Source: a virus (lineage: Duplodnaviria; Heunggongvirae; Uroviricota; Caudoviricetes). From it: a stretch of DNA of 64,000 nucleotides. Under the pieces are notes generated by a model. That model saw nothing but the letters and a program-made list of their open reading frames with translations. It was not told the origin of the DNA and ran no database searches. The position numbers and the translations under genes were made by a program. Location: the IMG/VR virus record IMGVR_UViG_3300002834_000024, positions 160,001 to 224,000 of that record; one strand, written 5' to 3'. Positions 8,092-60,647 of this stretch are shown piece by piece; the stretch's first letter is position 1, and each line of letters starts with the position of its first letter.

Positions 8092-10869
8092 ATGGAAGAT
8101 ACATATAAAATAATGATGGCTGGTGCCAAATCCAAACAGGCTGTACCAGCTGGTACAAAACTGAATATTGGAGTTGAAAGAGATTTTCATTTACTTGAAA
8201 ATATTGATTATAAAGGGACTGTTGATACATATCAAGTATATCTTGATGAACGTGATGCTTGTACTCTTTACCGATTAATTGTTACGATTGATCCTGTTTG
8301 TACTAATGTTCTTTTTAATCCATGTTCAATTATTGTAGATAAAGATTATACAAGAATTTTTAATGAAGATGAATCATCAACACCAGCTACAGCATTAATC
8401 TATGAACCTGATAAGGGAAAAGATAAAAACCCACCTATCACATATTTTTGTGGATATGATATTTTTGATAATGTACAATTCAGAACAACAAGATTTCAAA
8501 GAGCAAAAAAGTTAGATTCATTAGTACCATTAAAACCAGACCCAGATGTTTTACCATTGGAAGATGATGAAGAAAATGAACCACTTATTCATGTTTATAC
8601 ATTAGATGATATTACTGATGTTCATACAGCAGCTAATAATTATTTAGTTGAGTATGATGGATGGATTTCATTTAAAAATCCAAATAAATTAACAATATAT
8701 CAGTTAAAATTTAATGACAAAACTGATTATGAATATGATAAAATAGCCATTGATAAAGAAGATCCAGATGATAGATTGGAAAAAGAAAGATATTTTTTAC
8801 CATTTGCATCTGAACATGCAAATTGTGATACAATAGATATGTTTCCTAAAAGAGAAATGTTTTCTTTTAACCCAATGGTTGAATATAATGTAAATCCCGA
8901 AACTTTTAAATATGAAAGATGTCAATTTTTAAAAGAAGAAAATTGGCGATATTTTATAACATATCCTTACCGAAATGATTTTGAACACTGGTTAGTTACT
9001 GGTGAAGATGGGGAAAATGGTATTCCAATTATTTTTGGAAAAAAACTGGAAGCAGATGATAAAGAAAATATTAAATTTAATGTTCCAGTTGGAAAATTTA
9101 CGACAGCATACCCACATAATTTACAAAGGTCTGATAGAATTTATTTAACAAGTGATCAAAAAGAATATACCGTATTAGATATTGAAGATAAACGTACAGC
9201 ATATTTGTGGATTGAGGGTGTAAATACATCAGATCCAGTATGGGATAATGCAAGAATAAGAAGGATTGTTAATAATACTAAATCAGATTATTATATAAGA
9301 GTATTTAGAAAATTACCTAATTGGAAATTTGAAGAAGAAGAAATTACACCTAAAAATTTTGAAGATAGATTAGAAGTAAACAATACTGAATTTACTAATT
9401 CAAAACAAGCATTATCTTATGCTACAACAATATTTACAGATAGTATAAGTCAAATTGTTTTTACAGATAGTATTAATATTAATTTATTAACAGATAATCG
9501 TTGTCGACCATTAACAGAAATGTATTTAACAATTTTGAAAAATAATGAAGGTGATAAACAGTGGACAAGTGGTTCATGGGGTTCGTATGAAACTAAATAC
9601 CAAAGATTTTGGTCTAAAAATACAGTCGGATTTGAATTAACAAATCTTAAAGAAAAAGATATGGTACAACCAACTCTTAATGATAAAAGTACCTATGAAA
9701 CAAATTATCCTTCTGTATTTTATCTACATAATCTACAAGAAGCACCTGGTGGTGAATGGCAAGAAGGTGAAGCGGGTCCACCACAGAAAATAGAAATTAT
9801 TGATAAACAAGTTGAACCAGCACAGGAACAACCTGGATACACGAAAAATATTGAATTTGTTTATTCTCCAAAAAGTTTACAAACATCTGAAAATTTAGGG
9901 GATGTTGATGATGAAGAAACAGTTGAATTTTATGGCGATATTGCTGAATGGTCGCCTGGTGATTTTCAAGAAACAGTATTAGCACCTGTTTGTTACAGAT
10001 TTAACACCACAAGTAGAGAATCATTTGAATGGGCTGATAAAATGATGGTATTTCACCAAATTTGGCAAGATGATGAAGATAGAGGGTATGATCCAGATAC
10101 AGGTGCAACTCTATTAACTGATGAATATGATCCAGAAACAGGTGATGAATCAGAGGGGCCAGATTATGAAATCCCTGAAACATTAGATGATTGTAATGAT
10201 TTGTATAGCAATGGGACAAAATTTGTTTACAGAGGTTATATGAACATTGGACCAAGACCAGAGGGATATTATCATCGAGCTCATCATAAAATACCTTTTA
10301 AATGGTATTCAAATAAATTAAGACAAAAAACAGGAAAAGAAATAAAAGTAAAAATTATGCAACCAGAAAATTGTGTTGATGAACCAATGATTGCTTTTAT
10401 TACTTATACAAAACATAGTTTAATGTCAAGAGATGTAATTAGAATACATATCAATGATAAAGAACCAAATGATCCACCATGTGATAAATTATTTAGAGTT
10501 ACTTGTCCTGCAATTGACAGAGCAAAGTTTTTAATTCCGATGGATGATGAGATTATGGCAGCTGGTAAAGATGGTATTACTATTACCCATTATCTTGAAG
10601 AAATACCAACATGGGCGCAAAAATTAGAAGATGGTAGTTATGTATGGAGAAATATATTATTAAATGATGAACAAGATAGTACACATGCAGAAGACCAACA
10701 TGAAGAATTTCCATTTACAAATGGTCATTTTTACGTTCACAATTTGATTAAATTTTATTTAAGACGACAAGGCAGAGCATTATATTATAAACCATATCTG
10801 AATGATATTGCAATGGATCCATATCACCCAGATATACATGATGAAGAACCACCAAAAGATATTTGTTAA
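8092..10869 (+). CDS. Putative structural protein (925 aa)
   Basis: Long ORF within the structural operon; TATTTAT motif at 8080. Confidence 0.6.
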   Translation: MEDTYKIMMAGAKSKQAVPAGTKLNIGVERDFHLLENIDYKGTVDTYQVYLDERDACTLYRLIVTIDPVCTNVLFNPCSIIVDKDYTRIFNEDESSTPATALIYEPDKGKDKNPPITYFCGYDIFDNVQFRTTRFQRAKKLDSLVPLKPDPDVLPLEDDEENEPLIHVYTLDDITDVHTAANNYLVEYDGWISFKNPNKLTIYQLKFNDKTDYEYDKIAIDKEDPDDRLEKERYFLPFASEHANCDTIDMFPKREMFSFNPMVEYNVNPETFKYERCQFLKEENWRYFITYPYRNDFEHWLVTGEDGENGIPIIFGKKLEADDKENIKFNVPVGKFTTAYPHNLQRSDRIYLTSDQKEYTVLDIEDKRTAYLWIEGVNTSDPVWDNARIRRIVNNTKSDYYIRVFRKLPNWKFEEEEITPKNFEDRLEVNNTEFTNSKQALSYATTIFTDSISQIVFTDSININLLTDNRCRPLTEMYLTILKNNEGDKQWTSGSWGSYETKYQRFWSKNTVGFELTNLKEKDMVQPTLNDKSTYETNYPSVFYLHNLQEAPGGEWQEGEAGPPQKIEIIDKQVEPAQEQPGYTKNIEFVYSPKSLQTSENLGDVDDEETVEFYGDIAEWSPGDFQETVLAPVCYRFNTTSRESFEWADKMMVFHQIWQDDEDRGYDPDTGATLLTDEYDPETGDESEGPDYEIPETLDDCNDLYSNGTKFVYRGYMNIGPRPEGYYHRAHHKIPFKWYSNKLRQKTGKEIKVKIMQPENCVDEPMIAFITYTKHSLMSRDVIRIHINDKEPNDPPCDKLFRVTCPAIDRAKFLIPMDDEIMAAGKDGITITHYLEEIPTWAQKLEDGSYVWRNILLNDEQDSTHAEDQHEEFPFTNGHFYVHNLIKFYLRRQGRALYYKPYLNDIAMDPYHPDIHDEEPPKDIC

Positions 10870-10882
10870 AAAATTTTAGATT

Positions 10883-12997
10883 ATGATTTTAAACCGTTAT
10901 CAAGCAAATAATAAAAATATAGTATCAAAAATACAGAATTTCAAAATTGTTCAAGCGTTTGACAATGTTGATGCTGGATTTTTTGAATTTTATTTTGATA
11001 AACCACATATGTTAAATGATGGTTCAATGCTTAATATCAGTGATCCTGAAAATTATGATTATAAAATGGATTTATATCCAAATGTACTTAGAGGAAATGC
11101 TATTATCAGATTAAGACCACAAGTTCGGATTGGAATAACAGCAACTATGAAATACAAATGGAGATATGCAGATAATTCCAATGATTGGGTTTTAATGGGT
11201 GGTGGAGGCGCATTGCAAGGTACAGTTGATATTCCTATACCTGGTGGAATGGTTGAACAAGAATTTGTAACTTATAAAGATTCATTAAATCACGTTGGTA
11301 TTGGAGAACCATTTGTTATTCAAATTGGTAGTTTAAATGGTATGATTGCAGTAAAAGAACAACATTCATCAGAGTGGCAACCACTAATAAACCCATCAGA
11401 TTTACCTGATTGCGGTGTTTGGTCAGATCATTCGATAGTTGCTTCTGTTGTAATAAATGATACTTATTTACGAGTAAATAGATTCGATTTATGTAAAAAA
11501 ATTAACATAAAAAGACGTGGGTATGATGATTGTGGAAAATATTATTTTTTCACAGATTATGGTTGGAATCAAACTAAAAATAAATGGTTTGATCACTTAT
11601 ATACATCACCTTGTGAATGTCAAGAAATATGTGCTGTAATAGATAATATGCCATGGTGGGAAGTTTTTGGTGGGTTATTACATAGTAATGAAAGTGGAAC
11701 TGCTTCTTGTCCAGTTGATCCACCACAATCAAATCCAGATGGTATATATGGTGGGGGCGCAATTCAACAAAAACCGAAAGCACCTGAACAATGCGAAATA
11801 GTTTCAATTCAAGTATATAAACATTGTGATGATTTATATGAACCAATTTGTGCAAACAAAGCAAATATTTTAAAACCTGGTTCATCAAATATAGATTACT
11901 CTTTTTCTATTTTAAATGATATTGAATTTGAAAATGTAAGAGAAATTAGAAAATGTTTAGCATTGAATTGTTTAAAATTTTGGCGAGATGTTACAGGTTT
12001 TCAATGTGAAATAGGTTTAGATATGAATTTTGATGTTTCATTAGGAAGAAATGACAAATGGAATACAAAATTTATTGAAGATGAAAAAAAGAAAACAATT
12101 AACCCAATTCTTGATAATGAACGAGTAAGATTTGAACCATATTGGAAAAATGGTGATGATGATTTTACTATGATTAATCATATAAAATTTCAATTAGTTT
12201 TCTTGGATGAAGAAAATAAACCTGATACATGGACAGATGAAAAAACACCAATACCAGAGGATCCAACTTGTTGGAAAACATTAGGATTTATTGATGATGA
12301 TGTCAAATATCAAAAAATGAAATTGAAAAAGTGTTTCCTAAGATTATCATTTTATGATAATAACAATCCAAGTCAATATCTTTTAGAACATTGGAATACT
12401 GTATTTGTTGACATTAATATGATGTTTTCTGATTTTATATATGGAATTAATTCAATATCAGGATTTAATTACAATACAATTCCAATTTCAAAATTCAAAG
12501 ACCCATATACAGGTGAGGATACAGAGGGATTTAGAACAACTTTTCATGTATATAATCCTTATATAAAGAATATTGAAAGAACACCACATCCTGATGATGA
12601 TGAAGCATATCGAAAAGACGGTCCGTTTAATATGAATTATTCCAATACTTCCGATGGTTATTATATTTATTTATATGATCCAGCATTGGATTGTAAATGT
12701 AATCCACATAATGGATATTGGGATCAAATACCAAATGCTTTGTATATGAAATTAGAATTTAATAATGCTAAGACAGGTAAAAGACATTTATTCTTTCATG
12801 GAAAAAATAAGAGTGGTTATGACATGGATCAAGTCTTTTTTGGTGAACAAGCAATTTGGACAAAGATATGGGTTGAATATAATAAAAAATTAAATAAATT
12901 TATTTGGTATCCTGATCCTGAAAGTTCAAATGTTGAACAAGATGAAAAGTGTAAAGATACAATGATATTTAGATTTTGGGAAGCATATGTTAAGTAA
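10883..12997 (+). CDS. Putative structural protein (704 aa)
   Basis: Long ORF tightly packed in the structural operon. Confidence 0.6.
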   Translation: MILNRYQANNKNIVSKIQNFKIVQAFDNVDAGFFEFYFDKPHMLNDGSMLNISDPENYDYKMDLYPNVLRGNAIIRLRPQVRIGITATMKYKWRYADNSNDWVLMGGGGALQGTVDIPIPGGMVEQEFVTYKDSLNHVGIGEPFVIQIGSLNGMIAVKEQHSSEWQPLINPSDLPDCGVWSDHSIVASVVINDTYLRVNRFDLCKKINIKRRGYDDCGKYYFFTDYGWNQTKNKWFDHLYTSPCECQEICAVIDNMPWWEVFGGLLHSNESGTASCPVDPPQSNPDGIYGGGAIQQKPKAPEQCEIVSIQVYKHCDDLYEPICANKANILKPGSSNIDYSFSILNDIEFENVREIRKCLALNCLKFWRDVTGFQCEIGLDMNFDVSLGRNDKWNTKFIEDEKKKTINPILDNERVRFEPYWKNGDDDFTMINHIKFQLVFLDEENKPDTWTDEKTPIPEDPTCWKTLGFIDDDVKYQKMKLKKCFLRLSFYDNNNPSQYLLEHWNTVFVDINMMFSDFIYGINSISGFNYNTIPISKFKDPYTGEDTEGFRTTFHVYNPYIKNIERTPHPDDDEAYRKDGPFNMNYSNTSDGYYIYLYDPALDCKCNPHNGYWDQIPNALYMKLEFNNAKTGKRHLFFHGKNKSGYDMDQVFFGEQAIWTKIWVEYNKKLNKFIWYPDPESSNVEQDEKCKDTMIFRFWEAYVK

Positions 12998-13020: not shown

Positions 13021-13953
13021 ATGTTACATGAAGGGGTATTTTATCGAAAATCAAAAACTATACCATTTATTGGTGAATATGTTGCATTAATACGAAATAG
13101 TAATAGGTTTGCATATAGTAATGATGCTGTTACATGGTATGATGATTTTTTACCAACCATAGAAGATTGGTCATCTATATGTTATGGTGATAATAAATTT
13201 GTGGCTGTTGCACGAAATACTGATACCATGATTTATACAAGTAGTAGTACTGGTTGGTCAATAGGTACAATGCCAACTGTTGCTGATTGGGTGTTAGTTA
13301 GATATGGAAATGGAAATTTTATTGCTGTTGCTGATGATGGACAAACAGCACTTTCTGTGGATGGTGTTAATTGGGTATCAGGTGGAAATCTTGGTTATTC
13401 AGGAACACGTGTATTATTATATCTTAATGGTGTTGGATTAGATAGTTTTGTAACTTGGAGTGTACAAAGTGGTAGAATAATGAGAACAAATAATGCTGGT
13501 GTAACATGGTCTGGGGTTGGAAATTCTCAAGCAGGGACTTCCTATGTTAATTGTGGGGCTGATATTGCACCATATAGTCGTTATACTTTTGTTAGACCAA
13601 ATTATGTTAATACTGGTGGAATTGCTTATTTTTCTTATACTGGTAGTATGGGTTCTGGAAATTTTAATGCTTCTTCTATTGATATGGTTTTTGTCAACCC
13701 AACAGCAGTTATGATATGTACTAATGGTAATGTTTATCATTCAACTACTGGTACTTCTTTTAGTCTTGTTGGTACTTTACCATTGACAAGTAATGATTGG
13801 AAAGCATTAATATATGGTGTTAATAGTGCTAAATATGTTGCAATAGCAAAAGATAACACAAATGTTGCCGCATATTCAAGTGATGGATTGAACTGGACAC
13901 AAACCCAAATGCCATTTAATGGTGAGTGGTTTGTGATTGCAGCAAAAACTTAA
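13021..13953 (+). CDS. Beta-propeller (Asp-box/BNR-like repeat) protein, candidate receptor-binding or tail accessory
   Basis: Repeated S-x-D-G-x-x-W motifs (YSNDAVTW, LSVDGVNW, RTNNAGVTW, YSSDGLNW) and YG-x-x-x-F-V/I-A blades. Confidence 0.65.
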   Translation: MLHEGVFYRKSKTIPFIGEYVALIRNSNRFAYSNDAVTWYDDFLPTIEDWSSICYGDNKFVAVARNTDTMIYTSSSTGWSIGTMPTVADWVLVRYGNGNFIAVADDGQTALSVDGVNWVSGGNLGYSGTRVLLYLNGVGLDSFVTWSVQSGRIMRTNNAGVTWSGVGNSQAGTSYVNCGADIAPYSRYTFVRPNYVNTGGIAYFSYTGSMGSGNFNASSIDMVFVNPTAVMICTNGNVYHSTTGTSFSLVGTLPLTSNDWKALIYGVNSAKYVAIAKDNTNVAAYSSDGLNWTQTQMPFNGEWFVIAAKT

Positions 13954-13970
13954 TTAATTTTTTATTGGTA

Positions 13971-15698
13971 ATGGAATTTTATAGTCGAACATTCAACATA
14001 CATAACTTTATATGTCATTCCGTAAATCCAAATATTAGGGTTTTCGTTAATGGATCATGGGTACAAAATAAAACCACAGGTGAATATTATGGTGCTGTTA
14101 TTTCTGATGTTACAAAACCAGGATTAAATCAATCCTATAACCCATATAAAACAATTAGTGTTTTATCATATAAAGATGTTTTAATAATATATAGAAAATT
14201 AGCAAAATTTCAAAAATTTGTTAGATACCTTTGTTTAAGATGTACATTACCAACAAATGCTATTATTGATAAGTATATTGATTTGGCTGATGATTGGATG
14301 ATATATGAAGGAAATACTTTATATCCATTTACATATTATTTAACATCACAAAATATTGATTTTGATACAAATCAAGTAAGACCTGGTACTTATTATCCAA
14401 CAAGTGGAACAACACCATTTATTACTATGGTTATGAATAAATATGGCGGATTAGATACTGTTGTTTGGAAAGGTGAAACACCCGATCCAAATGATAAACG
14501 TGTTGATTTATTTATGCAAGATTATATTGATAATCCAGGTAAACTTGGAAAATTAATTACTGCTGTTTATGAATATAGAGTAACAACCATTAATACCAAT
14601 TCTTCATCATGTGATATAGCATCTGATTTGTTTGAACAAATTTCAGATGATATATTGGGAATGGCTTATAGTTTTCATAATTCCAATCATAATTGTGTGC
14701 CAAAACCAATACCAAATCCTGGTAGTTCTCCAACAAACAGTGCAAATTATAAAATGGATATATTATTATCTAATAATATTGATGATTTGGGAATATTTTT
14801 TGTACCAGCAAATGTATGGAAATGTGGAAAAAGATATGAACCTGGTGATTGTGTAACAATGAATGGGGTTGTATATACACCTTCAAGTAGTTTTGCTGGT
14901 TGGTATAATGAAAAAGCTAATAAAATCTATTTTGATGAATGTGAATTGGATGATAATGGATTTCCGACAGGTGTACTGATAATGAATGGTCATAATTATA
15001 CTAATTTTCAAGCCACAACGATGGATACAGCAACAGCTGTTACATTACAAGCAAGATGGGATGGTCAATTAGCAGGGTTAAGAGCATATCGAAAAGGTGC
15101 AACCAACTGGTTTGATGAAGAAGGTTTTTATAAAGTTGGCGTTAAATTTCATGAAGAAGCTGTTGATGAAAGTGGAAGTATAAAATACGAAAGTTTTATA
15201 ACTAATATTCAACAATCATCACCCGAAGTTGGACATGATATTATAACATATACATATATTATTGACCAATTAAGTACAAATCCTTATCCACAAACAGGTG
15301 TACAATTTAAAGATGAATATCATAGATATAAAATTGGTTCAAGTGATTTTTATTATGATTTTGGTCAAAAATCATACATTGTTTATCAAGCAAAAACATT
15401 AGGAAATTATACAACTGTATATAAAGGTAATAGTGGTATTTTTCCATTTGGTGATCCTGACAGATTTGACTATTTTCCATTATCCAAAATGGATTATTAT
15501 GAGGGATTGGCATTTGAACCAGTTATATATAAAGATGTCAATATTGACAGACAAATCAACAGAGCATGGGACAGACATTTTGCTTTGGGTGAATGTCGAA
15601 CATTTTATCAAGTTCTAAATTATCGGAATGGCGGATTTTTTGTTATCAAAGATTTAACTGATACCAATAATAAGAATGAGATAACACAAAGAAGTTAA
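13971..15698 (+). CDS. Putative structural protein; likely start ATG 13971
   Basis: Long ORF in operon; ATG 13971 follows the preceding stop; short carbohydrate-binding-like motif (WKCGKRYEPGDCVTMNGVVY). Confidence 0.6.
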   Translation: MEFYSRTFNIHNFICHSVNPNIRVFVNGSWVQNKTTGEYYGAVISDVTKPGLNQSYNPYKTISVLSYKDVLIIYRKLAKFQKFVRYLCLRCTLPTNAIIDKYIDLADDWMIYEGNTLYPFTYYLTSQNIDFDTNQVRPGTYYPTSGTTPFITMVMNKYGGLDTVVWKGETPDPNDKRVDLFMQDYIDNPGKLGKLITAVYEYRVTTINTNSSSCDIASDLFEQISDDILGMAYSFHNSNHNCVPKPIPNPGSSPTNSANYKMDILLSNNIDDLGIFFVPANVWKCGKRYEPGDCVTMNGVVYTPSSSFAGWYNEKANKIYFDECELDDNGFPTGVLIMNGHNYTNFQATTMDTATAVTLQARWDGQLAGLRAYRKGATNWFDEEGFYKVGVKFHEEAVDESGSIKYESFITNIQQSSPEVGHDIITYTYIIDQLSTNPYPQTGVQFKDEYHRYKIGSSDFYYDFGQKSYIVYQAKTLGNYTTVYKGNSGIFPFGDPDRFDYFPLSKMDYYEGLAFEPVIYKDVNIDRQINRAWDRHFALGECRTFYQVLNYRNGGFFVIKDLTDTNNKNEITQRS

Positions 15699-53827: not shown

Positions 53828-54150
53828 TGGACAAAATTGAAATTAGAGTTGGTATTGGTTTGGATAGTATAACTTTTGCTATATTACCATCCAGAAGACA
53901 ATATATAAATAATTGTTATCCAGATACAATTCAAGCAAACTATGTTACCATTAACTATGATATTAATAAGTGTGAAAATGTTGAAAACTTTATTTTGAAG
54001 TATAAACATAATATTTCCACAATCTTATTTGGAATAGATAGTCAAATTGTTTTATCTGATGATAAAGTTAGAGAAATACAATTTGTGTATTCCAAAGACG
54101 AAAAAATATTATATACCTATACAATGTCAGATCATTGTAGAAAAATATAA
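53827..54150 (+). CDS. Hypothetical protein
   Basis: ORF with TAATG overlap. Confidence 0.55.
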   Translation: MDKIEIRVGIGLDSITFAILPSRRQYINNCYPDTIQANYVTINYDINKCENVENFILKYKHNISTILFGIDSQIVLSDDKVREIQFVYSKDEKILYTYTMSDHCRKI

Positions 54151-54154
54151 TATA

Positions 54155-54304
54155 TTATTTAGTTCTGATAATAGCACGTCTTGTATTCACTCTTGGAGTA
54201 ACCCCACCATAGTTACCATTAGGTTTAACCCCAATATTTCTTGGTGCTTGTTTTTGAACCTGTGTTTTAACAGCTGGTACAGCTCTTTTTGAACAATTGC
54301 ACAT
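54155..54304 (-). CDS. Small basic protein (49 aa, not in ORF track)
   Basis: MCNCSKRAVPAVKTQVQKQAPRNIGVKPNGNYGGVTPRVNTRRAIIRTK; TATTTATA on the minus strand at 54322-54329. Confidence 0.6.
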   Translation of the reverse strand: MCNCSKRAVPAVKTQVQKQAPRNIGVKPNGNYGGVTPRVNTRRAIIRTK

Positions 54305-54419
54305 AATATTAATTATTTTAATATAAATATGATTAAAACTTGGAATATTGAAATATTTATACTATATTTATAAATGAAATTACAGAGGTAATTCAAGAAA
54401 AAAGAAAATAACAAGGTAA

Positions 54420-54515
54420 AGGAAATTCACAGCAATTTTTTAAAAATTAACAATTATTCAATTCAAAGACCGTAGGGTTGATCTATCGGGATCAACAAAC
54501 AAAAACAAATTTCCT
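54420..54515 (+). ncRNA. ACAGCAA stem RNA, unit 1
   Basis: AGGAAATT/AATTTCCT closing stem, ACAGCAA, internal GTTGATC/GATCAAC hairpin, 3' T run. Confidence 0.55.
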
Positions 54516-54527
54516 GTCTTTTTTAAA

Positions 54528-54586
54528 GGAAAACTAACAGCAATTTTTAAACATACAAATTTTAGGCGTGTATTAAAGAGTTTTCC
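54528..54586 (+). ncRNA. ACAGCAA stem RNA, unit 2
   Basis: GGAAAACT/AGTTTTCC closing stem, ACAGCAA, ATACA/TGTAT hairpin, 3' T run. Confidence 0.55.
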
Positions 54587-54645
54587 GTTTTTTTTTTGAA
54601 AATTTAGAAATAATCAATATATTTATATTTGATTAAAAATTATAT

Positions 54646-54717
54646 CGTGGGATGGAGAAGTGGTATCTCGTGGGGCCCATAACCCCAAGATCGCAGGATC
54701 GTAACCTGCTCCCGCAA
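54646..54717 (+). tRNA. tRNA-fMet (CAT), initiator type
   Basis: C1:A72 mismatch, A11:U24, GGG/CCC anticodon stem; atypical C33 and T-loop ATCGTAA. Confidence 0.9.
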
Positions 54718-54727
54718 CAAACTTATA

Positions 54728-54792
54728 GGAAAACTAACAGCAATGTTTAAAAACCATCATTCTGAATCAATGACGACATTAAAATGTTTTCC
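54728..54792 (+). ncRNA. ACAGCAA stem RNA, unit 3
   Basis: GGAAAAC/GTTTTCC closing stem, ACAGCAA, TCATT-CTGAATC-AATGA hairpin, 3' T-rich run. Confidence 0.55.
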
Positions 54793-54813
54793 GTTATTTT
54801 TTAAAAATTGAAC

Positions 54814-54821
54814 TATTTATA
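54814..54821 (+). promoter_or_regulatory. Putative late promoter TATTTATA driving leader 1
   Basis: Same motif precedes many late-type genes and leader 2. Confidence 0.5.
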
Positions 54822-54842
54822 ATTCTAAAAGAAATTAAAAAA

Positions 54843-54977
54843 ATGTTTTTAGTAACAATGACATCTTATATTCAAAATTCTATCAATTTACGTGGTGGAA
54901 ATAAGAATAATAAACCCTTTGGTGATGATGAACAACCAAAAGGGCAAGACCTGTTATTGCAAAAATTTGAAACATAA
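54843..54977 (+). CDS. Attenuator leader peptide 1 (44 aa) for tRNA operon 1
   Basis: MFLVTMTSYIQNSINLRGGNKNNKPFGDDEQPKGQDLLLQKFET; core residues match the downstream tRNA set. Confidence 0.75.
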   Translation: MFLVTMTSYIQNSINLRGGNKNNKPFGDDEQPKGQDLLLQKFET

Positions 54978-55006
54978 ATGAAGATATAAGTTTCCATAGT
55001 TTTTCA

Positions 55007-55065
55007 GAGAACTCTCAATAACAAGGTCAAGAATAGGGCAAGTTATTGGGAGTTTTCATTTTTTT
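55007..55065 (+). terminator. Attenuator terminator 1 (competes with antiterminator 54948-54959 : 55016-55028)
   Basis: 16-bp stem GAGAACTCTCAATAAC/GTTATTGGGAGTTTTC plus T7. Confidence 0.8.
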
Positions 55066-55108
55066 AACATCCAGTTCAAAAGAGTTTGAATAATTTGGAT
55101 TACTTTTG
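55064..55108 (+). promoter_or_regulatory. Bipartite promoter TTAACATCCAG-N26-TACTTTTG just upstream of tRNA-Glu
   Basis: Conserved motif and spacing. Confidence 0.7.
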
Positions 55109-55118
55109 TAAAAAATAT

Positions 55119-55193
55119 GGCGGTATCGTATAACGGTTAGTACGACTGACTTTCGCTCAGTAAATAGGGGTTCGATTCCCCTTACCGCTACCA
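55119..55193 (+). tRNA. tRNA-Glu (TTC)
   Basis: Cloverleaf; ACTGA-CTTTCGC-TCAGT; encoded CCA. Confidence 0.92.
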
Positions 55194-55198
55194 AGAAA

Positions 55199-55210
55199 GT
55201 TCTTTGAAAT
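55199..55210 (+). promoter_or_regulatory. boxA-like antitermination element
   Basis: GTTCTTTGAAAT resembles rrn boxA. Confidence 0.45.
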
Positions 55211-55217
55211 ATAAAAT

Positions 55218-55289
55218 TCCCCTGTAGCTCCAATGTAGAGCGACAGACTGTTAATCTGTGGGTTCGTGGTTCAAGTCCACGCAGGGGAG
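55218..55289 (+). tRNA. tRNA-Asn (GTT)
   Basis: Cloverleaf; ACAGA-CTGTTAA-TCTGT; G73. Confidence 0.92.
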
Positions 55290-55297
55290 CTAAAAAA

Positions 55298-55374
55298 CGA
55301 AAGGTAGAGGAGTCTGGTTCCCTCGTCATCTGATGTGCAGGTGGAGTACAATGGTTCAAATCCATTACTTTCGA
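55298..55374 (+). tRNA. Atypical tRNA-like gene with a Pro-type body and an abnormal anticodon arm
   Basis: C1:G72, A73, D-loop AGTCTGGT, T-arm AATGG-TTCAAAT-CCATT; anticodon arm TCATCTG-ATGTG-CAGGTGG. Confidence 0.6.
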
Positions 55375-55381
55375 CTAATAT

Positions 55382-55457
55382 CTAGATGTATAGGAGTCTG
55401 GTTTATCTAGCTCGCCCTGGAAGCGAGATCACGTTGGTTCAAATCCAACCATCTAGA
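55382..55457 (+). tRNA. tRNA-Pro (TGG), atypical C33/A37
   Basis: CTCGC-CCTGGAA-GCGAG; C1:G72, A73. Confidence 0.85.
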
Positions 55458-55464
55458 CACAAAT

Positions 55465-55538
55465 GCAGGTGTCGTATAACGGTATTATTATATCTGGCTT
55501 CCAACCAGAGGACGTGGGTTCGATTCCTATCACCTGCT
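55465..55538 (+). tRNA. tRNA-Gly (TCC)
   Basis: TCTGG-CTTCCAA-CCAGA; U73. Confidence 0.92.
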
Positions 55539-55548
55539 CAACAAATAT

Positions 55549-55621
55549 GGGATTTGTGGTGTAATGGCTAGCATATAACACTGTCACTGTTAAGGTTGGG
55601 GTTCGAGTCCCCCAGATCCCG
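55549..55621 (+). tRNA. tRNA-Asp (GTC), apparent 8/4 acceptor/T-stem fold
   Basis: TAACA-CTGTCAC-TGTTA; GGGATTTG/CAGATCCC; G73. Confidence 0.88.
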
Positions 55622-55629
55622 CAAAAAAA

Positions 55630-55702
55630 CGAGTAGTCGCACAGTTGGTAGTGCGCTTGGTTTGGGACCAAGAGGTCGGGAGTTCGAGTCTCTCCTATTC
55701 GA
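55630..55702 (+). tRNA. tRNA-Pro (TGG), canonical
   Basis: CTTGG-TTTGGGA-CCAAG. Confidence 0.93.
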
Positions 55703-55718
55703 CATAAAAATAGAAATT

Positions 55719-55766
55719 ATGAAGAAGATTTTTAAAATAAAACGAAAACATATGCAGTCCCCATAG
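55719..55766 (+). CDS. Mini leader peptide 3 (MKKIFKIKRKHMQSP) before tRNA-Lys/Arg/Gln
   Basis: AT-rich leader; five Lys codons, then Arg and Gln; stop codon inside hairpin 55759-55784. Confidence 0.55.
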   Translation: MKKIFKIKRKHMQSP

Positions 55767-55799
55767 TCACTATCGGCTATGGGGTCGCTATCAGGCTAT

Positions 55800-55870
55800 T
55801 TCCTCATAGTTCAATGGTAGAACTCTACACTTTTAATGTAGATATTCAGGTTCGATTCCTGATGGGGAAA
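55800..55870 (+). tRNA. tRNA-Lys (TTT)
   Basis: CTACA-CTTTTAA-TGTAG. Confidence 0.92.
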
Positions 55871-55902
55871 CAAAAAAAAAATAGATATATGATAATTAAT
55901 AT

Positions 55903-55974
55903 GGTTTCATAGTTCAACGGATAGAATATTTGACTACGGATCAAAAGATGAGGGTTCAAATCCTTCTGAAATCA
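55903..55974 (+). tRNA. tRNA-Arg (ACG)
   Basis: TTTGA-CTACGGA-TCAAA. Confidence 0.92.
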
Positions 55975-55985
55975 CAAGCATATAT

Positions 55986-56057
55986 TGTCCTATGGTGTAG
56001 TTGGAAACACACATCCCTTTGACGGATGTATCTTTTGTTCGAGGCAAAATGGGACAA
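55986..56057 (+). tRNA. tRNA-Gln (TTG)
   Basis: CATCC-CTTTGAC-GGATG; U1:A72. Confidence 0.9.
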
Positions 56058-56076
56058 CAAATTAAAATATAATGTT

Positions 56077-56379
56077 ATGGATAAAATAATGATGTTTGAT
56101 AAAGAACATGAAGTTCTTGTTAGTAATGATACTAATGGATTAGTATGTGAAACTGAAATGATGAATATGATTGGGAAATCAACAATTCCAGTTTTTATGA
56201 ATAGAAAGCAAAAATTAGAAGAACATGCAAGTTTGTTGTTAAATGATTTAGATGTTGAAATTATTCAATCACATCCAGTTGAACCATCTAAAATTCATGT
56301 AAAAGTAAAATCATTTGAGGATTGGAAAGAATCTATAAAAGATATACCGCCAATTGGAGTAGTAACCATACCTAATTGA
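56077..56379 (+). CDS. Hypothetical protein
   Basis: ATG 56077 lies downstream of tRNA-Gln. Confidence 0.55.
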   Translation: MDKIMMFDKEHEVLVSNDTNGLVCETEMMNMIGKSTIPVFMNRKQKLEEHASLLLNDLDVEIIQSHPVEPSKIHVKVKSFEDWKESIKDIPPIGVVTIPN

Positions 56380-56393
56380 TAATACCATCTAAT

Positions 56394-56438
56394 TTAACAT
56401 CCAGTAAAATTTATTTTTATATAAGTTTATTATTTTTG
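56394..56438 (+). promoter_or_regulatory. Bipartite promoter TTAACATCCAG-N26-TATTTTTG
   Basis: Conserved motif and spacing. Confidence 0.75.
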
Positions 56439-56471
56439 TATCATTATTAACACAAATAATTTAAAAAAGTT

Positions 56472-56819
56472 ATGAGAATTGCATTTAGGCTTTGTGATAA
56501 TACAAAACAGTTAAAAACAACTGATAAAAATGCACATGTTTTTGAAAGAGTAGATGATACATTCATAATTCCAAGAAAAGGTGATGTAGTTGTTTTTTTT
56601 GGTATAAAATATGAGGTAATTTCAGTAGAATTTACCTATAAAGAAATATCATTATTAAATATGTATCATGATGAAGCAAAGAAGATTTATCCATTTATTG
56701 TGGGACAAGATGATAAAATAACAGATACGGTAACTGTTCATTTATTTGAATATAGTCCAAAAATAAAGAAAAAGGGGTTTATTCGCACACTTCTTTCACA
56801 TGGGTTTACTAATTTTTAA
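56472..56819 (+). CDS. Hypothetical protein
   Basis: ORF after promoter; IPRKGDVV motif. Confidence 0.6.
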   Translation: MRIAFRLCDNTKQLKTTDKNAHVFERVDDTFIIPRKGDVVVFFGIKYEVISVEFTYKEISLLNMYHDEAKKIYPFIVGQDDKITDTVTVHLFEYSPKIKKKGFIRTLLSHGFTNF

Positions 56820-56848
56820 AATTCATATTTATAAGAAAATATGTTTTT

Positions 56849-57088
56849 ATGGAAAAAATTGAAAATATTATAAAAGAAACTATAACTGAATATGTTTTGC
56901 AACCAGAGGGGTTGGATCAAAAGATTAGAAATAAATTAACACCAATATATAATCTCATTGAAGTATTAAAAATGTATGATAAAGATCCAGATCCAAAAAT
57001 ATGGGCGTTTATTATGAAAGAAAACAGTATGGTTGAAAAATCTATTCAAGAGATATTGGAATTAACAAAAGATTATCAACACACTTAA
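56849..57088 (+). CDS. Hypothetical late protein (IENIIKETITE N-terminus)
   Basis: TATTTATAAGAAAA at 56826. Confidence 0.6.
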   Translation: MEKIENIIKETITEYVLQPEGLDQKIRNKLTPIYNLIEVLKMYDKDPDPKIWAFIMKENSMVEKSIQEILELTKDYQHT

Positions 57089-57102
57089 AATCATATAATG
57101 TT

Positions 57103-57315
57103 ATGACAGAAAAACAGAAACAAAAAATTTGGAATTTCAAGGATACCAATCTTCAACAATGGCAACATGAAAGAACTATTGTTGAAAATGAATTATCTAA
57201 TAATCAATCCATGTTTTGTGTTTGTGGTAAATTAGCCACAGGATTTCATGAAATGAATTGTAGAAAATTCAATGATAAAGTGGATATAGAAACTCTTAAA
57301 AGATTAAAATTATAA
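57103..57315 (+). CDS. Small Zn-binding protein
   Basis: CVCG...H-x-x-x-C. Confidence 0.55.
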   Translation: MTEKQKQKIWNFKDTNLQQWQHERTIVENELSNNQSMFCVCGKLATGFHEMNCRKFNDKVDIETLKRLKL

Positions 57316-57317
57316 AA

Positions 57318-57362
57318 TTAACATCCAGAACACTTTTTATTAATATGTTATGTTTATCTTTG
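57318..57362 (+). promoter_or_regulatory. Bipartite promoter TTAACATCCAG-N26-TATCTTTG
   Basis: Conserved motif and spacing. Confidence 0.7.
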
Positions 57363-57415
57363 AGTAATTTTTAGAGATAAAAGGATATTTATTTAGTAGA
57401 AAAGATAAAAATAAT

Positions 57416-58147
57416 ATGATTATGAACAAAGATAAAAAAGACTTGATAGTTGAGAGTTATAAGAACAAATTTTCCTTTTTACTTGGATATGATCCAGAAA
57501 TTGGGGGCGAATTGATAGAAGCAAACCACCATAATTTTATGTCAGAAATTATGGGACAAGATTCATTCAATAAACAACCAATGCAAAGATTAGATGAAAT
57601 AACAACTGACAGATTGTTAGGAAAACATTATGAAAATGGATTTGTTATTCTGTCAGCATCAAGGAGTGAATTATCCGATGCAGAAAATGTAACACGAAAT
57701 CAAAAACTTTTAAATATTTTACAAAGTAGTAGTAATGTTTTTTCATTTTTACCAGTCTATGGTGGATATATCGAAAATAAGGGTACAGAAAACGAACAAC
57801 GTGTTTTTGAAAGAAGTTTTGTAATCTTGAATTTTGATAAAAATGGTAATGTTGGAGATTTTGATGATTTAATGAGTTTTTCACAAGAACTTTCTAATCG
57901 TTTTCATCAAGAAACATATCTTATCAAAAAACCAGGTAATGCACCACCATATTATATTCGTACAAAAAGTGGCAAGGTAGATTGGGAATTTACTGGTGAA
58001 ATCAAAATAGATGATTTAACACAAAAATATTTTACCCGATTAAGACAACTTGGAAAACAATTTACATTTGAAGGTGTTTATATTAATCCAAAACCAATGT
58101 GTTATAGTGAAAGACATTGTAGATATTTGAAAAATGAAATATTTTAA
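57416..58147 (+). CDS. Putative S-adenosylmethionine lyase (T3 SAMase-like) with N-terminal extension
   Basis: ILSASRSELSDAEN-x-x-R, GGYIE, FERSFVI, F-HQE motifs follow the order I recall for T3 SAMase (VSAFRS-x-L-x-D-x-x-N-x-x-R, GCYRE, EEKTV, WEQD). Confidence 0.6.
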   Translation: MIMNKDKKDLIVESYKNKFSFLLGYDPEIGGELIEANHHNFMSEIMGQDSFNKQPMQRLDEITTDRLLGKHYENGFVILSASRSELSDAENVTRNQKLLNILQSSSNVFSFLPVYGGYIENKGTENEQRVFERSFVILNFDKNGNVGDFDDLMSFSQELSNRFHQETYLIKKPGNAPPYYIRTKSGKVDWEFTGEIKIDDLTQKYFTRLRQLGKQFTFEGVYINPKPMCYSERHCRYLKNEIF

Positions 58148-58189
58148 CATCCAGAAGATTGTTTTTTAAAAAAATTGTTTGTACTTTTG
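58144..58189 (+). promoter_or_regulatory. Bipartite promoter TTAACATCCAG-N27-TACTTTTG
   Basis: Conserved motif and spacing. Confidence 0.7.
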
Positions 58190-58195
58190 TATCAC

Positions 58196-58412
58196 ATATA
58201 GAGTAATCTATATTGTTTAAATTTAGTTATGAGGATGTGGACTGAATTGTGTGATGTATGTCATTGCAAAATGCACAATTCAAGGGATACAGCAAGACAG
58301 CTAACAAGGTGAATTAACATCAAAGGGTGAAAATCTCACAAACATAAGGTTGAAAGCCCGTAAAAGAATTTGATGCGTGTTGATTGTGTAGTAATTATTT
58401 TAAACTTTTTTT
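58196..58412 (+). ncRNA. Candidate ~200-nt structured ncRNA
   Basis: Own promoter, GTAA-capped 5' hairpin, closing stem, two internal domains, 3' T run. Confidence 0.45.
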
Positions 58413-58432
58413 TAAAAATTGAATTTATTGAC

Positions 58433-58440
58433 TATTTATA
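58433..58440 (+). promoter_or_regulatory. Putative late promoter TATTTATA driving leader 2
   Basis: Similar context (A/G-ACTATTTATAAT) to that before leader 1. Confidence 0.5.
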
Positions 58441-58463
58441 ATAAAATTAAAAATTTTTTAACA

Positions 58464-58574
58464 ATGAAACGATTTAGTTTACATATTAGTATTACCTTAT
58501 CAGCAATGGCGTATTGCTGGTTGGTGTCTTATTGTACACTTTTTACACATTTTGGTGGAATTGTTTCAAGTTAA
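58464..58574 (+). CDS. Attenuator leader peptide 2 (36 aa) for tRNA operon 2
   Basis: MKRFSLHISITLSAMAYCWLVSYCTLFTHFGGIVSS; residues 4-30 are exclusively the 12 amino acids of the downstream tRNAs. Confidence 0.8.
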   Translation: MKRFSLHISITLSAMAYCWLVSYCTLFTHFGGIVSS

Positions 58575-58605
58575 TATTATATGAAATAAAGATAGGAAAG
58601 ATTAT

Positions 58606-58662
58606 AATCCCCTTGAAACAAATTAGTCAAAAAGTGATGAAAAGTTTTAAGGGGATTTTTTT
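58606..58662 (+). terminator. Attenuator terminator 2 (competes with antiterminator 58561-58570 : 58612-58621)
   Basis: 14-bp stem AATCCCCTTGAAAC/GTTTTAAGGGGATT plus T run, ending 2 nt before the first tRNA. Confidence 0.82.
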
Positions 58663-58664
58663 AT

Positions 58665-58736
58665 TGTGTTATAGTTCAGTGGTAGAACAGGTGTTTCATA
58701 GGCATCAAGTCGGGGGTTCAAATCCCTCTAACGCAA
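58665..58736 (+). tRNA. tRNA-Met (CAT), elongator type (Ile2 not excluded)
   Basis: GGTGT-TTCATAG-GCATC. Confidence 0.85.
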
Positions 58737-58746
58737 CAAATATATT

Positions 58747-58831
58747 GGAGAGTAAACCTGGACATGGGTTAGGGACCGCCTGCTAAGCGGATCGTTCCGC
58801 AAGGAATTTGGATCGAGACCAATGCTCTCCG
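58747..58831 (+). tRNA. tRNA-Ser (GCT), apparent 8/4 fold, T-loop ATCGAGA
   Basis: CCGC-CTGCTAA-GCGG; long variable arm; G73. Confidence 0.85.
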
Positions 58832-58840
58832 CAAAATTTT

Positions 58841-58932
58841 GGAGGTGTAACCCTAATGTGTAAGGGACTGGTCTTGAAAACCAGCAGTAATCATGTAAAA
58901 GTGATGTGTCAGTTCGAGTCTGACCACCTCCG
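58841..58932 (+). tRNA. tRNA-Ser (TGA)
   Basis: CTGGT-CTTGAAA-ACCAG; long variable arm. Confidence 0.9.
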
Positions 58933-58944
58933 CCTTAATAATGA

Positions 58945-58956
58945 GGTCTTTGACAT
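58945..58956 (+). promoter_or_regulatory. boxA-like antitermination element
   Basis: GGTCTTTGACAT resembles rrn boxA. Confidence 0.5.
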
Positions 58957-58972
58957 GTTGGTAAAAATAAAT

Positions 58973-59060
58973 GAGAGTGCGCTAGCGTTGGAGAGCTGGG
59001 ATGGGCTGTAACCCCATTGCCTTTAACAGGGCTTAGTAGGTTCGATTCCTACCACTCTCA
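58973..59060 (+). tRNA. tRNA-Tyr (GTA)
   Basis: ATGGG-CTGTAAC-CCCAT; long variable arm. Confidence 0.9.
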
Positions 59061-59065
59061 CATAT

Positions 59066-59140
59066 GGGAATATCGTATAGGTGGTTATTGTACGCTGGAC
59101 TGAAAATCCAGAGGCTGGGGTTCAACTCCCTGTGTTCCCA
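59066..59140 (+). tRNA. tRNA-Phe (GAA)
   Basis: CTGGA-CTGAAAA-TCCAG. Confidence 0.9.
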
Positions 59141-59150
59141 CAATAAGTGA

Positions 59151-59234
59151 GGGGATGTGGCGAAATTGGTAGTACGCATCGGGTTTAAGCCCCGATTCCC
59201 AAAAGGAGTGTCGGTTCGAGTCCGACCATCCTCA
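59151..59234 (+). tRNA. tRNA-Leu (TAA)
   Basis: TCGGG-TTTAAGC-CCCGA; variable arm. Confidence 0.92.
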
Positions 59235-59242
59235 CAACAAAT

Positions 59243-59327
59243 GGGGATATGGGGGAATTGGCAGACCCGCCTGTTTTAGGAACAGGTGCAGTAATGCGTG
59301 TGAGTTCGAGTCTCACTATCCCTACCA
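59243..59327 (+). tRNA. tRNA-Leu (TAG)
   Basis: CCTGT-TTTAGGA-ACAGG; encoded CCA. Confidence 0.93.
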
Positions 59328-59330
59328 AAT

Positions 59331-59401
59331 GTTCCATTAGCATAATGGTAGTGTACTGGTCTGCAAAACCAGGTGTATCCGTTCAATTCGGATATGGAAC
59401 T
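59331..59401 (+). tRNA. tRNA-Cys (GCA)
   Basis: CTGGT-CTGCAAA-ACCAG; U73. Confidence 0.92.
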
Positions 59402-59415
59402 CAAAAAATATTAAA

Positions 59416-59488
59416 GGGGCTGTCATATAGTTGGCTATTATGATAGATTTGCAATCTATTCACTGGGGTTCGAGACCCCACAGCTCCA
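59416..59488 (+). tRNA. tRNA-Ala (TGC)
   Basis: ATAGA-TTTGCAA-TCTAT; G3:U70. Confidence 0.92.
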
Positions 59489-59494
59489 CAAAAA

Positions 59495-59568
59495 GTTTCT
59501 GTATTTCAGTGGTTTAGAATGTTACTCTTACAAGGTAAAGGTCGTTGGTTCAAATCCAACCAGAAACA
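59495..59568 (+). tRNA. tRNA-Val (TAC)
   Basis: TTACT-CTTACAA-GGTAA. Confidence 0.92.
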
Positions 59569-59578
59569 CTCATAACAT

Positions 59579-59651
59579 TGGCACGTATATCAATGGTCAG
59601 ATTACCACCCTGATAAGGTGGGGGTTACTGGTTCAAGTCCAGTCGTGCCAA
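59579..59651 (+). tRNA. tRNA-Ile (GAT)
   Basis: CCACC-CTGATAA-GGTGG. Confidence 0.92.
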
Positions 59652-59666
59652 CTAAATTTTTTATAT

Positions 59667-59737
59667 AGGTACATGGTGTAATGGTAGCATTTTGGTCTCC
59701 AAAACCAACGATCAGGGTTCAAATCCTTGTGTACCTG
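59667..59737 (+). tRNA. tRNA-Trp (CCA)
   Basis: TTGGT-CTCCAAA-ACCAA; G73. Confidence 0.92.
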
Positions 59738-59743
59738 CTACAT

Positions 59744-59817
59744 GGTATCGCTGGTGTAATGGTTAGCATGGCACATTGTGAGTGTGTAGGTTAGGGGTTC
59801 AAGTCCCCTGCGATACC
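59744..59817 (+). tRNA. tRNA-His (GTG)
   Basis: GCACA-TTGTGAG-TGTGT; G-1:C73. Confidence 0.92.
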
Positions 59818-59823
59818 CAAATA

Positions 59824-59855
59824 TTTGGAAAACAATTTTAAAAACAGTATTTTTG
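59824..59855 (+). promoter_or_regulatory. Canonical Bacteroidota promoter TTTG-N20-TATTTTTG
   Basis: Matches the -33/-7 consensus and spacing, upstream of the lipoprotein gene. Confidence 0.65.
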
Positions 59856-59873
59856 TATTAAAATTTTAAAAAT

Positions 59874-60380
59874 ATGAATAAAAAAATGATTTTATTGTCA
59901 ATATTAATGACAAGTCTGTTTTATGGTTGTGGAAGTATGGGTAGTGTTGCTGTTAAAAATGTAAATTCATGTACATATAAAATTGTTAATACAACTTTTA
60001 TTTATGATTTGTTTGATAGTGATGAAGAATATGAAAATAAATTTAGGTTAATTAAATTAGCAATTTATGATATATTTCCTAATATGGATGGTAACACATT
60101 TTTATTTGATGATGAATTAAAAGTTATTCAAGGAAAAATGATTTATAATGTACATACAGATTCTTTTTTTGGAACAAAATATGAAGGGAGAAGTAATTTC
60201 AAAATTATTAATAATAAGATAACATTTAGTAATCCCGAAATATTTTTTTTACCATCTCGTTATAGTAGTGGTGGGTGGGAGAAAATACCAAATGAGGGAA
60301 CTATATCTGAAAAAACCGCATGTAATACAATAGATGTGTGGGAAAAAATGGTAATAAAACTTTTAGAAAACATAAAATGA
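59874..60380 (+). CDS. Lipoprotein
   Basis: MNKK plus hydrophobic core and LFYGC lipobox. Confidence 0.7.
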   Translation: MNKKMILLSILMTSLFYGCGSMGSVAVKNVNSCTYKIVNTTFIYDLFDSDEEYENKFRLIKLAIYDIFPNMDGNTFLFDDELKVIQGKMIYNVHTDSFFGTKYEGRSNFKIINNKITFSNPEIFFLPSRYSSGGWEKIPNEGTISEKTACNTIDVWEKMVIKLLENIK

Positions 60381-60385
60381 TTAAT

Positions 60386-60457
60386 GCTTCTGTAGTTCAA
60401 TGGCTAGAACATCTGCTTTGTAACCAGAAAATATCAGTTCGATTCTGATCAGAAGCT
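60386..60457 (+). tRNA. tRNA-Thr (TGT)
   Basis: TCTGC-TTTGTAA-CCAGA (31:39 mismatch); acceptor GCTTCTG/CAGAAGC. Confidence 0.88.
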
Positions 60458-60476
60458 CTCAATTTTTACCAACAAA

Positions 60477-60647
60477 ATGTCAAAAGAATTATATAATTGG
60501 TTAGAATTTCGTTTCAGACATGATAATTTAAAAAAATATCATAAATATTTTCAACAATGGGTTGATAATATAACTGAAAATCAAGTTCAAGGTTTTTATA
60601 ATCAATTTACCAGTTTCATAGGTCAAGATATAATTTGGAAACCATAA
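60477..60647 (+). CDS. Small hypothetical protein (56 aa, not in ORF track)
   Basis: MSKELYNWLEFRFRHDNLKKYHKYFQQWVDNITENQ... Confidence 0.6.
   Translation: MSKELYNWLEFRFRHDNLKKYHKYFQQWVDNITENQVQGFYNQFTSFIGQDIIWKP

Follow-up and report, generated by a model that had tools for sequence, protein, structure and literature searches.

The tRNA genes of this phage are sorted into blocks, and the locus raises the question of what controls the first of them, which lies behind a short open reading frame and a terminator. We consider it likely, with good confidence, that this frame is the leader of a multivalent, ribosome-coupled transcription attenuator gating operon 1, which would provide tRNAs on demand late in infection atop a separate early-type promoter. 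The window (the whole stretch of DNA analysed, 64,000 nucleotides) corresponds to positions 160001-224000 of a 274,786-base virus record found in termite-gut metagenomes, and its segment 54759-55676 is present with zero differences in a second sample from another study. No close relative was found among the annotated phages searched, the best capsid matches being those of ~40% to annotated Gp23-type capsids. The phage encodes three sigma-70-like proteins, and promoters carrying the -7 box TAHHTTTG, as in the Bacteroidetes promoter consensus (PMC6847099), point to a Bacteroidetes host.

The genome yields 26 tRNA calls, 24 of them within the window (Table 1). Operon 1 comprises ten tRNA genes if a degenerate element (55298-55375) is counted, and represents eight amino acids only if this element is omitted. 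ARAGORN calls it Thr-TGT, its anticodon loop is non-canonical, its body is Pro-like and it gives no Rfam match at E<=1. A degenerate Ser-like element with a long arm, for which there is no ARAGORN call, lies at 58745-58836. Unusual anticodon loops are also seen in tRNA-Pro(UGG) (55382-55458; C33/A37) and tRNA-Glu (G37), a possible sign of escape from anticodon nucleases or from the need for modification. The tRNA that reads AGA is outside operon 1, 20 kb away. Between the two operons there is a gene of the SAM-lyase family (PF23780, 57416-58147), and the isolated tRNA-Met is flanked by stem-closed units with an unpaired ACAGCAA (54420-54800 and 58280-58295), which L004, one of two orthologous loci, also has. 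A structured non-coding stretch (58195-58400), without an Rfam match, lies 3' of a promoter with the TTAACATCC box and 5' of leader 2.

Table 1. Features of the tRNA region, in coordinates of the window.
Feature	Position	Strand	Details
Isolated tRNA-Met	in window		among the 24 calls
Late-type phage promoter	54812..54823	+	TATTTAT at 54814, 29 nt before the leader-1 ATG
Leader ORF 1	54843..54977	+	44 codons, A-rich start context, no Shine-Dalgarno
Region 1, protector strand CAATGACA	54856..54863	+	pairs with 54952-54959
Control codons	54891..54950	+	19/20 in the operon-1 amino-acid set
Conserved hairpin	54915..54944	+	just 5' of region 2
Region 2, antiterminator strand	54948..54959	+	core CCTGTTATT identical in three orthologues
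Intrinsic terminator	55007..55065	+	16-bp stem 55007-55057, T7 tract 55059-55065
Internal hybrid promoter	55064..55108	+	TTAACATCCAG box, Bacteroidetes -7 box 55101-55108, predicted start ~55113
tRNA operon 1	55119..56058	+	Glu, Asn, degenerate tRNA-like element, Pro, Gly, Asp, Pro, Lys, Arg(ACG), Gln
tRNA-Glu	55119-55193		first tRNA of operon 1
boxA-like element GTTCTTTGA	55199..55207	+	
Internal Lys mini-leader and hairpin	55719..55799	+	15 codons, 5 Lys, ORF end 55766
Sister unit	58433..58663	+	TATTTAT promoter, leader ORF 2 (58464-58574), terminator 58607-58656
tRNA operon 2	58665..59818	+	Met, Ser, Tyr, Phe, Leu, Leu, Cys, Ala, Val, Ile, Trp, His
tRNA-Thr after operon 2	60386		

The initial annotation had proposed that leader 1 samples all eight amino acids of operon 1. 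Our recount of the control codons agrees, provided that the element at 55298-55375 is omitted: R, G, N, K, P, D, E and Q are all present, and the sole Arg codon of the core is CGT, as had been remarked, although the genome prefers AGA (1514 AGA against 390 CGT codons). The first occurrences of the eight amino acids are spread over codons 17-31, and each is represented by 1-4 codons. This set makes up 45.5% of the residues of the proteome; leader 1 alone, out of the genome's 1,092 small ORFs, reaches 19 of 20 with all eight present (the runner-up has 12), and none of 70,647 20-mers of the proteome does so. Since 0 of ~32,000 mono- and dinucleotide shuffles of the core, kept free of stops, attained its score, purine richness is not the cause. 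When the set was drawn at random instead, p was ~3e-4, and 6 of the 75,582 possible sets of eight amino acids fit leader 1 equally well. Three control codons (GGT twice and CCC) demand extended wobble from the phage tRNAs. Codons 2-16 encode Leu, Ser, Ile, Phe, Tyr, Thr and Val, mostly amino acids of operon 2, and the whole frame uses 16 of the 20 amino acids, lacking Ala, Cys, His and Trp. The peptide has no Pfam match and none of the Rfam families covers leader 1, the RNA of which folds with z = -4.5. Its start appears usable, as judged by its context, by its spacing (29 nt 3' of the late-promoter motif) and by the kept frame; the A at -3 agrees with initiation in Bacteroidetes (PMC6847099).

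True orthologues of the locus are three, counting the window, L004 and L005; neighbouring proteins of the latter two are 75% and 72% identical to those of the window, respectively. Both carry a leader ORF, called by gene callers in each, before the same tRNA block, and all indels in these frames are multiples of three. They keep the frame and four helices, three of which (protector, hairpin and terminator) show compensatory changes, and the helices at the RNA level, like the amino-acid set, have outlasted the divergence of the peptide sequence. The Arg codons of the three leaders are CGN (CGT or CGA) in 4 of 4 cases, versus ~30% genome-wide. In L005 a Cas12f1/TnpB-like gene and, after it, a short array of CRISPR-like repeats (10658-12510) lie just 5' of tRNA-Met, and a DUF559 nuclease-like gene (13314-14438) is inserted in operon 1, between Asn and Asp.

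Leaders in more distant phages follow the content of their own blocks. In L092 (genome G001), a distant relative with a capsid 68% identical, the block is Thr, Tyr, Glu, His, Asp, Asn, Gln, Pro and Leu, so that Thr, Tyr, His and Leu replace the Gly, Lys and Arg of operon 1; 14 of the 15 residues of its leader core, including ETYHNDQ, come from this block, with all 9 amino acids present (p 8e-5). The layout and promoter motif are the same, with another antiterminator (TGGGAG with CTCCCA). In a composition-blind search, which considered only the promoter motif, an ATG, the length of the ORF and its distance, eight leaders were obtained that precede blocks of at least five amino acids, and seven of these match their own block at p<0.05, the leader of L105 being the one that does not. 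Four of the seven belong to phages that are non-orthologous at the leader-1 locus, and three (L126, L132 and L148) had first been picked up by a composition filter. When all leaders were scored against all blocks, leaders scored highest on their own or an orthologous block. The cultured phage phiCbK has tRNA blocks with the same predicted layout as operon 1: a Pro/Lys/Leu/Ser block is preceded by an annotated terminator and by the annotated gene gp335, whose 45 codons are rich in Ser, Leu, Ala, Pro, Thr and Lys; before a Phe/Val/Ile/Gln block there is an ORF of 32 codons in which Phe, Val, Ile, Gln and Arg are frequent.

Other searches returned less. A clear matched leader was not found in Flavobacterium phage immuto, and the majority of gut jumbo phages in which tRNA genes are scattered did not pass the multi-amino-acid filter; since ARAGORN splits the blocks and misses degenerate tRNAs there, this does not mean that they lack such leaders. 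Further candidate leaders, rich in Glu/Tyr/Pro/Gly, Arg, Lys or Glu, occur before gene-interrupted tRNA blocks at six loci of gut jumbo phages (L096, L099, L127, L116, L142 and L094). The single-protein and leader-motif scans of IMG/VR gave zero matches, the metagenome scan gave two loci, both without tRNAs, and homologues of the 404-aa neighbour at 50-54% identity have no adjacent tRNAs; the contigs P0003 and P0005 stop short of the leader. Suppressor-type tRNAs with CTA or TTA anticodons, hinting at stop-codon recoding, were seen in the related phages L098, L099, L101, L106, L107, L109 and L130.

A sister unit in the window repeats the arrangement before operon 2. Leader 2 covers all 10 non-Met amino acids of that operon (p ~3e-4 to 6e-4) and has the same switch geometry as leader 1, and the two leaders of this one genome have complementary amino-acid sets.

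The predicted RNA elements of a switch lie around leader 1. The hairpin at 54915-54944 had been described previously, as had the pairing of 54948-54959 with region 3 (55016-55028), the 16-bp terminator stem and the position of the antiterminator strand, and these descriptions stood: the hairpin is present, its role in pausing being presumptive; the 2:3 duplex has 12 bp with one bulged A (-14.7 kcal/mol); the terminator (-21.8), whose 5' arm contains region 3, is followed by its T7 tract; and the antiterminator strand ends 15 nt 5' of the stop codon. A simple terminator scanner overlooks the terminator, which has a loop of more than 8 nt. The protector helix was absent from that description. 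In folding of the three orthologues, it pairs with a probability of 0.89-0.98 before region 3 exists, and in L005 it shows a compensatory change from C-G to A-T with AATGACA sitting in another reading frame; the 5' strand, kept in a different frame, was therefore selected as RNA. The conserved hairpin, which is a candidate RNA polymerase pause hairpin and sits where one would be expected, shows two double-sided changes among the three orthologues (T-A to G-C and T-A to A-T), and the terminator of L005 a compensatory C-G to T-A. The 2:3 duplex is better than that of codon-shuffled leaders (p 0.001-0.002), and helices 1:2, 2:3 and 3:4 are mutually exclusive. Of the six features of a leader-peptide attenuator that can be judged from sequence, five are present, namely the ORF, matched codons, a terminator, an exclusive antiterminator and a protector; the sixth, the geometry, agrees in part, as set out below. 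In L092 a boxA-like element lies directly 3' of the terminator; we take the boxA-like element of operon 1 to have a putative role in antitermination.

According to these data, the attenuator could work as follows. RNA polymerase would start near 54825 and may pause after the hairpin at 54915-54944, awaiting the ribosome. Rapid decoding of the Glu, Asn, Pro, Gly, Asp, Lys, Arg and Gln codons would carry the ribosome past region 2 (codons 33-42) to the stop codon, where it would block the inner helix of the antiterminator; upon its release 1:2 would re-form, 3:4 would fold and transcription would end at ~55065. When any one cognate tRNA is short, the ribosome would stall at or before codons 31-33, 1:2 would be broken and region 2 left free, so that 2:3 could form and polymerase read into operon 1. 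The newly made tRNAs would decode the same control codons, closing the loop. What probably triggers the switch late in infection is a lack of usable tRNA, caused by demand, decay of host tRNAs or tRNA-cleaving defences. As extra tRNA relieves only a tRNA shortage, the signal is presumably such a shortage rather than amino-acid starvation.

Codon-by-codon masking of the ribosome footprint agrees with this scheme in part. The antiterminator is free with the A site up to codon 31, partly free at codons 32-33 and blocked from codon 34, and in the folding model the end of this stall-sensitive stretch (codons 31-33) coincides with the last control amino acid to appear (codon 31). At equilibrium 2:3 outcompetes 1:2 once region 3 is made, so that the off state depends on kinetic trapping or on steric blocking. 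When the footprint counts only as unpaired bases, 2:3 forms again while a ribosome occupies the stop codon, in the window as well as in L005, and the caveat raised in the initial annotation, that masking by a terminating ribosome is less direct in leader 1, is therefore a real one. In the model a stall at the control codons (up to codons 31-33) frees region 2, whereas completed translation blocks it only if there is no pairing across the ribosome or if 1:2 is kinetically trapped. Coverage of the inner helix by the terminating ribosome, and recapture by the protector after release, might as kinetic effects answer this caveat; since the protector is predicted to hold the antiterminator strand without a ribosome, masking at the stop codon would not be needed. 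The attenuator reading itself, also put forward in that annotation, is strengthened by the statistics, by the compensatory changes in two orthologues and by the leaders that track block content elsewhere.

In the folding model, read-through can follow a stall at any of codons 2-31, and this bears on specificity. A long stall in codons 2-16 should also permit read-through, so that specificity rests on the presumed pause, and pausing of polymerase at the hairpin would compensate for brief delays in these codons, not for long stalls. For the same reason Leu or Ser limitation is a weak negative control, as codons 2-16 hold those residues and a long stall there should free the antiterminator. This breadth, the 16 amino acids used in the whole frame and an Asn-Lys-Pro motif retained even in L092, whose block has no tRNA-Lys, are what one would expect if the switch were coupled to translation and sensed general ribosome slowing, or an arrest motif in the nascent peptide (the conserved Asn-Lys-Pro), rather than specific tRNAs. 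Such a switch would leave unexplained both the leader cores that track block content across phages and the complementary sets of leaders 1 and 2, and we find it unlikely.

The attenuator also has to be weighed against the promoters of operon 1. TATTTAT lies 20-29 nt upstream of the start codon in 27 of the 54 ORFs that bear the motif; its distance is 29 nt at leader 1 and 31 nt at leader 2, with the same spacing in L092. The genes it precedes include those that we take, by sequence, to be portal, sheath and terminase, and we infer that it is a late promoter and acts late. The host-type promoter reported earlier at 55064-55108 stands only for its -7 box, the remainder being a phage TTAACATCC box that replaces the canonical -33 box. 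Of the 32 copies of TTAACATCC in the genome, 23 have a -7 box ending 45-46 nt downstream, and promoters of this type precede non-structural genes. In a sigma-70 promoter scan, unsuited to a Bacteroidetes host, matches were at chance level. The suggestion that operon 1 has an unconditional and an attenuated input was right in that both promoters are present, and it can be refined: with a late motif in one and a hybrid early-type promoter in the other, the two inputs are probably separated in time, an early unconditional one and a late attenuated one.

The internal promoter is kept in L004 and L005, overlaps the U tract of the terminator in all three orthologues, has its predicted start ~6 nt 5' of tRNA-Glu and could express operon 1 without read-through. 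One may thus suppose that it makes operon 1 and that an ancestral attenuator is now bypassed, its terminator serving only as insulation from upstream late transcription. This seems very unlikely to us, since a terminator that only insulated could do without an antiterminator, a protector or a matched ORF, all of which are retained, and protector, hairpin and terminator show compensatory changes among phages with neighbour proteins just 72-75% identical; moreover, no promoter of that type was seen between terminator and first tRNA in leader 2, nor was a -7 box or internal promoter found there in L092. That the frame encodes a functional small peptide, or arose by accident as a purine-rich frame in a structured RNA, so that it fits the tRNA set by chance, is hardly credible: the stretch that was scored was chosen after the fact and both the core and the codons of the operon-1 set are rich in A and G, but neither composition-preserving shuffles nor any other small ORF of the genome reach the score, the Pfam-less peptide diverges while helices and amino-acid set persist, and chance is already largely refuted by L092, L132 and L148.

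A further candidate element lies inside operon 1. The hairpin of the Lys mini-leader has no U tract, and its 3' arm is able to pair with the 5' end of tRNA-Lys (55800-55871). Mini-leader and hairpin (55719-55871 with the tRNA) are also observed in L004, L005, L111 and L123-L149 and are widespread in phages. In an IMG/VR pattern search that did not require start, stop or hairpin, 26 of 27 viral loci had such a mini-ORF before tRNA-Lys(UUU). The hairpin starts 0-6 nt from the stop of the mini-ORF in other phages and 10 nt before it in the window, and pairing of the arm with tRNA positions 1-12 is better within a locus than across loci (Wilcoxon p 0.002, n=22). Among 185,579 prokaryote genomes the pattern was found in one contig only, and this exact form is therefore not a common host feature; that contig (L152, 118 kb) is in a Lachnospiraceae MAG and is possibly a mis-binned phage. 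A ribosome on the stop codon of the mini-ORF would open the hairpin, and the freed arm would block folding of tRNA-Lys, while with a stall at the Lys codons the hairpin would stay and folding would not be blocked.

Taken together with the attenuators, this would compose a two-tier, ribosome-read controller of tRNA supply that detects the loss of specific tRNAs, for instance by host anticodon nucleases: two late attenuators would together monitor all 20 amino acids and switch on the matching replacement block, and the Lys mini-leader would separately gate folding and maturation of tRNA-Lys(UUU) by ribosome position. We put this wider reading forward tentatively, as a possibility somewhat short of an even chance. 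If true, the controller would be an inducible counter-defence, and a tRNA autoregulation of a kind not described in cells.

Why phages carry tRNAs is a long-standing question, with codon bias, decay of host tRNAs and escape from tRNA-cleaving immunity as proposed answers. A sensor that switches a tRNA block on when codons are read slowly would make the question directly testable, and could serve as a reporter of which tRNAs run short, when, and under which host defence. The attenuator design also accounts for tRNA genes being sorted into blocks, and its presence in the cultured phiCbK makes it testable in a laboratory host.

Multivalent attenuators are well known from enterobacterial amino-acid operons, as thrL (Thr/Ile) and ilvL of ilvGMEDA (Ile/Val/Leu), alongside the attenuators trpL, hisL and leuL. 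Leader 1 shares with these, and with pheL (PMC3082878), a promoter, a short ORF, control codons, a protector (1:2) and an antiterminator (2:3), and also a terminator (3:4) with a U tract and a candidate pause hairpin. It differs from the enterobacterial attenuators in being phage-borne and placed behind a late-type phage promoter, in having region 2 within the ORF, and in using 1-4 codons for each of eight amino acids instead of long runs of one to three. Moreover, it would control tRNAs and not enzymes, and its product would decode the sensor codons itself, so that the loop should respond to the amount of tRNA and not to amino-acid supply. An attenuator of an amino-acid biosynthetic or synthetase operon in the strict sense was rejected, as the downstream genes are tRNAs, not enzymes that make or charge an amino acid.

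The pheM attenuator acts on the pheST operon of E. coli, which encodes Phe-tRNA synthetase. As proposed for leader 1, the ribosome mediates attenuation there, charged tRNA is sensed and the controlled gene belongs to the translation machinery; unlike leader 1, it has one amino acid, a protein product and a chromosomal location. T-box riboswitches bind uncharged tRNA directly, without translation, and likewise report tRNA status through a terminator/antiterminator switch, but an element of this class, with its Stem I specifier loop and T-box bulge, was rejected, since Rfam at E<=1 shows none in 54000-60600.

Among described ways of controlling a tRNA array, the closest is that of the Anabaena trn operon, with 26 tRNAs, by the TrcR repressor (PMC10272220). 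This array, too, comes on under translational stress, but its control is by a DNA-binding repressor and without codon matching, and the paper mentions neither attenuation nor a leader. Phage tRNAs that counter tRNA-cleaving defences, those of T5 against PARIS (PMC12409363) and a T5-like tRNA-Tyr against retron-Eco7 (PMC11555353), share with operon 1 the likely purpose of replacing host tRNAs lost in infection; their described control differs, being a strong promoter, and the retron-Eco7 work mentions no leader or attenuation. In a literature search that was short on subscription papers, no publication turned up in which tRNA genes are under a leader-peptide attenuator. The proposed switch would carry the textbook attenuator design over to tRNA genes, with eight inputs and a direct feedback loop from the product.
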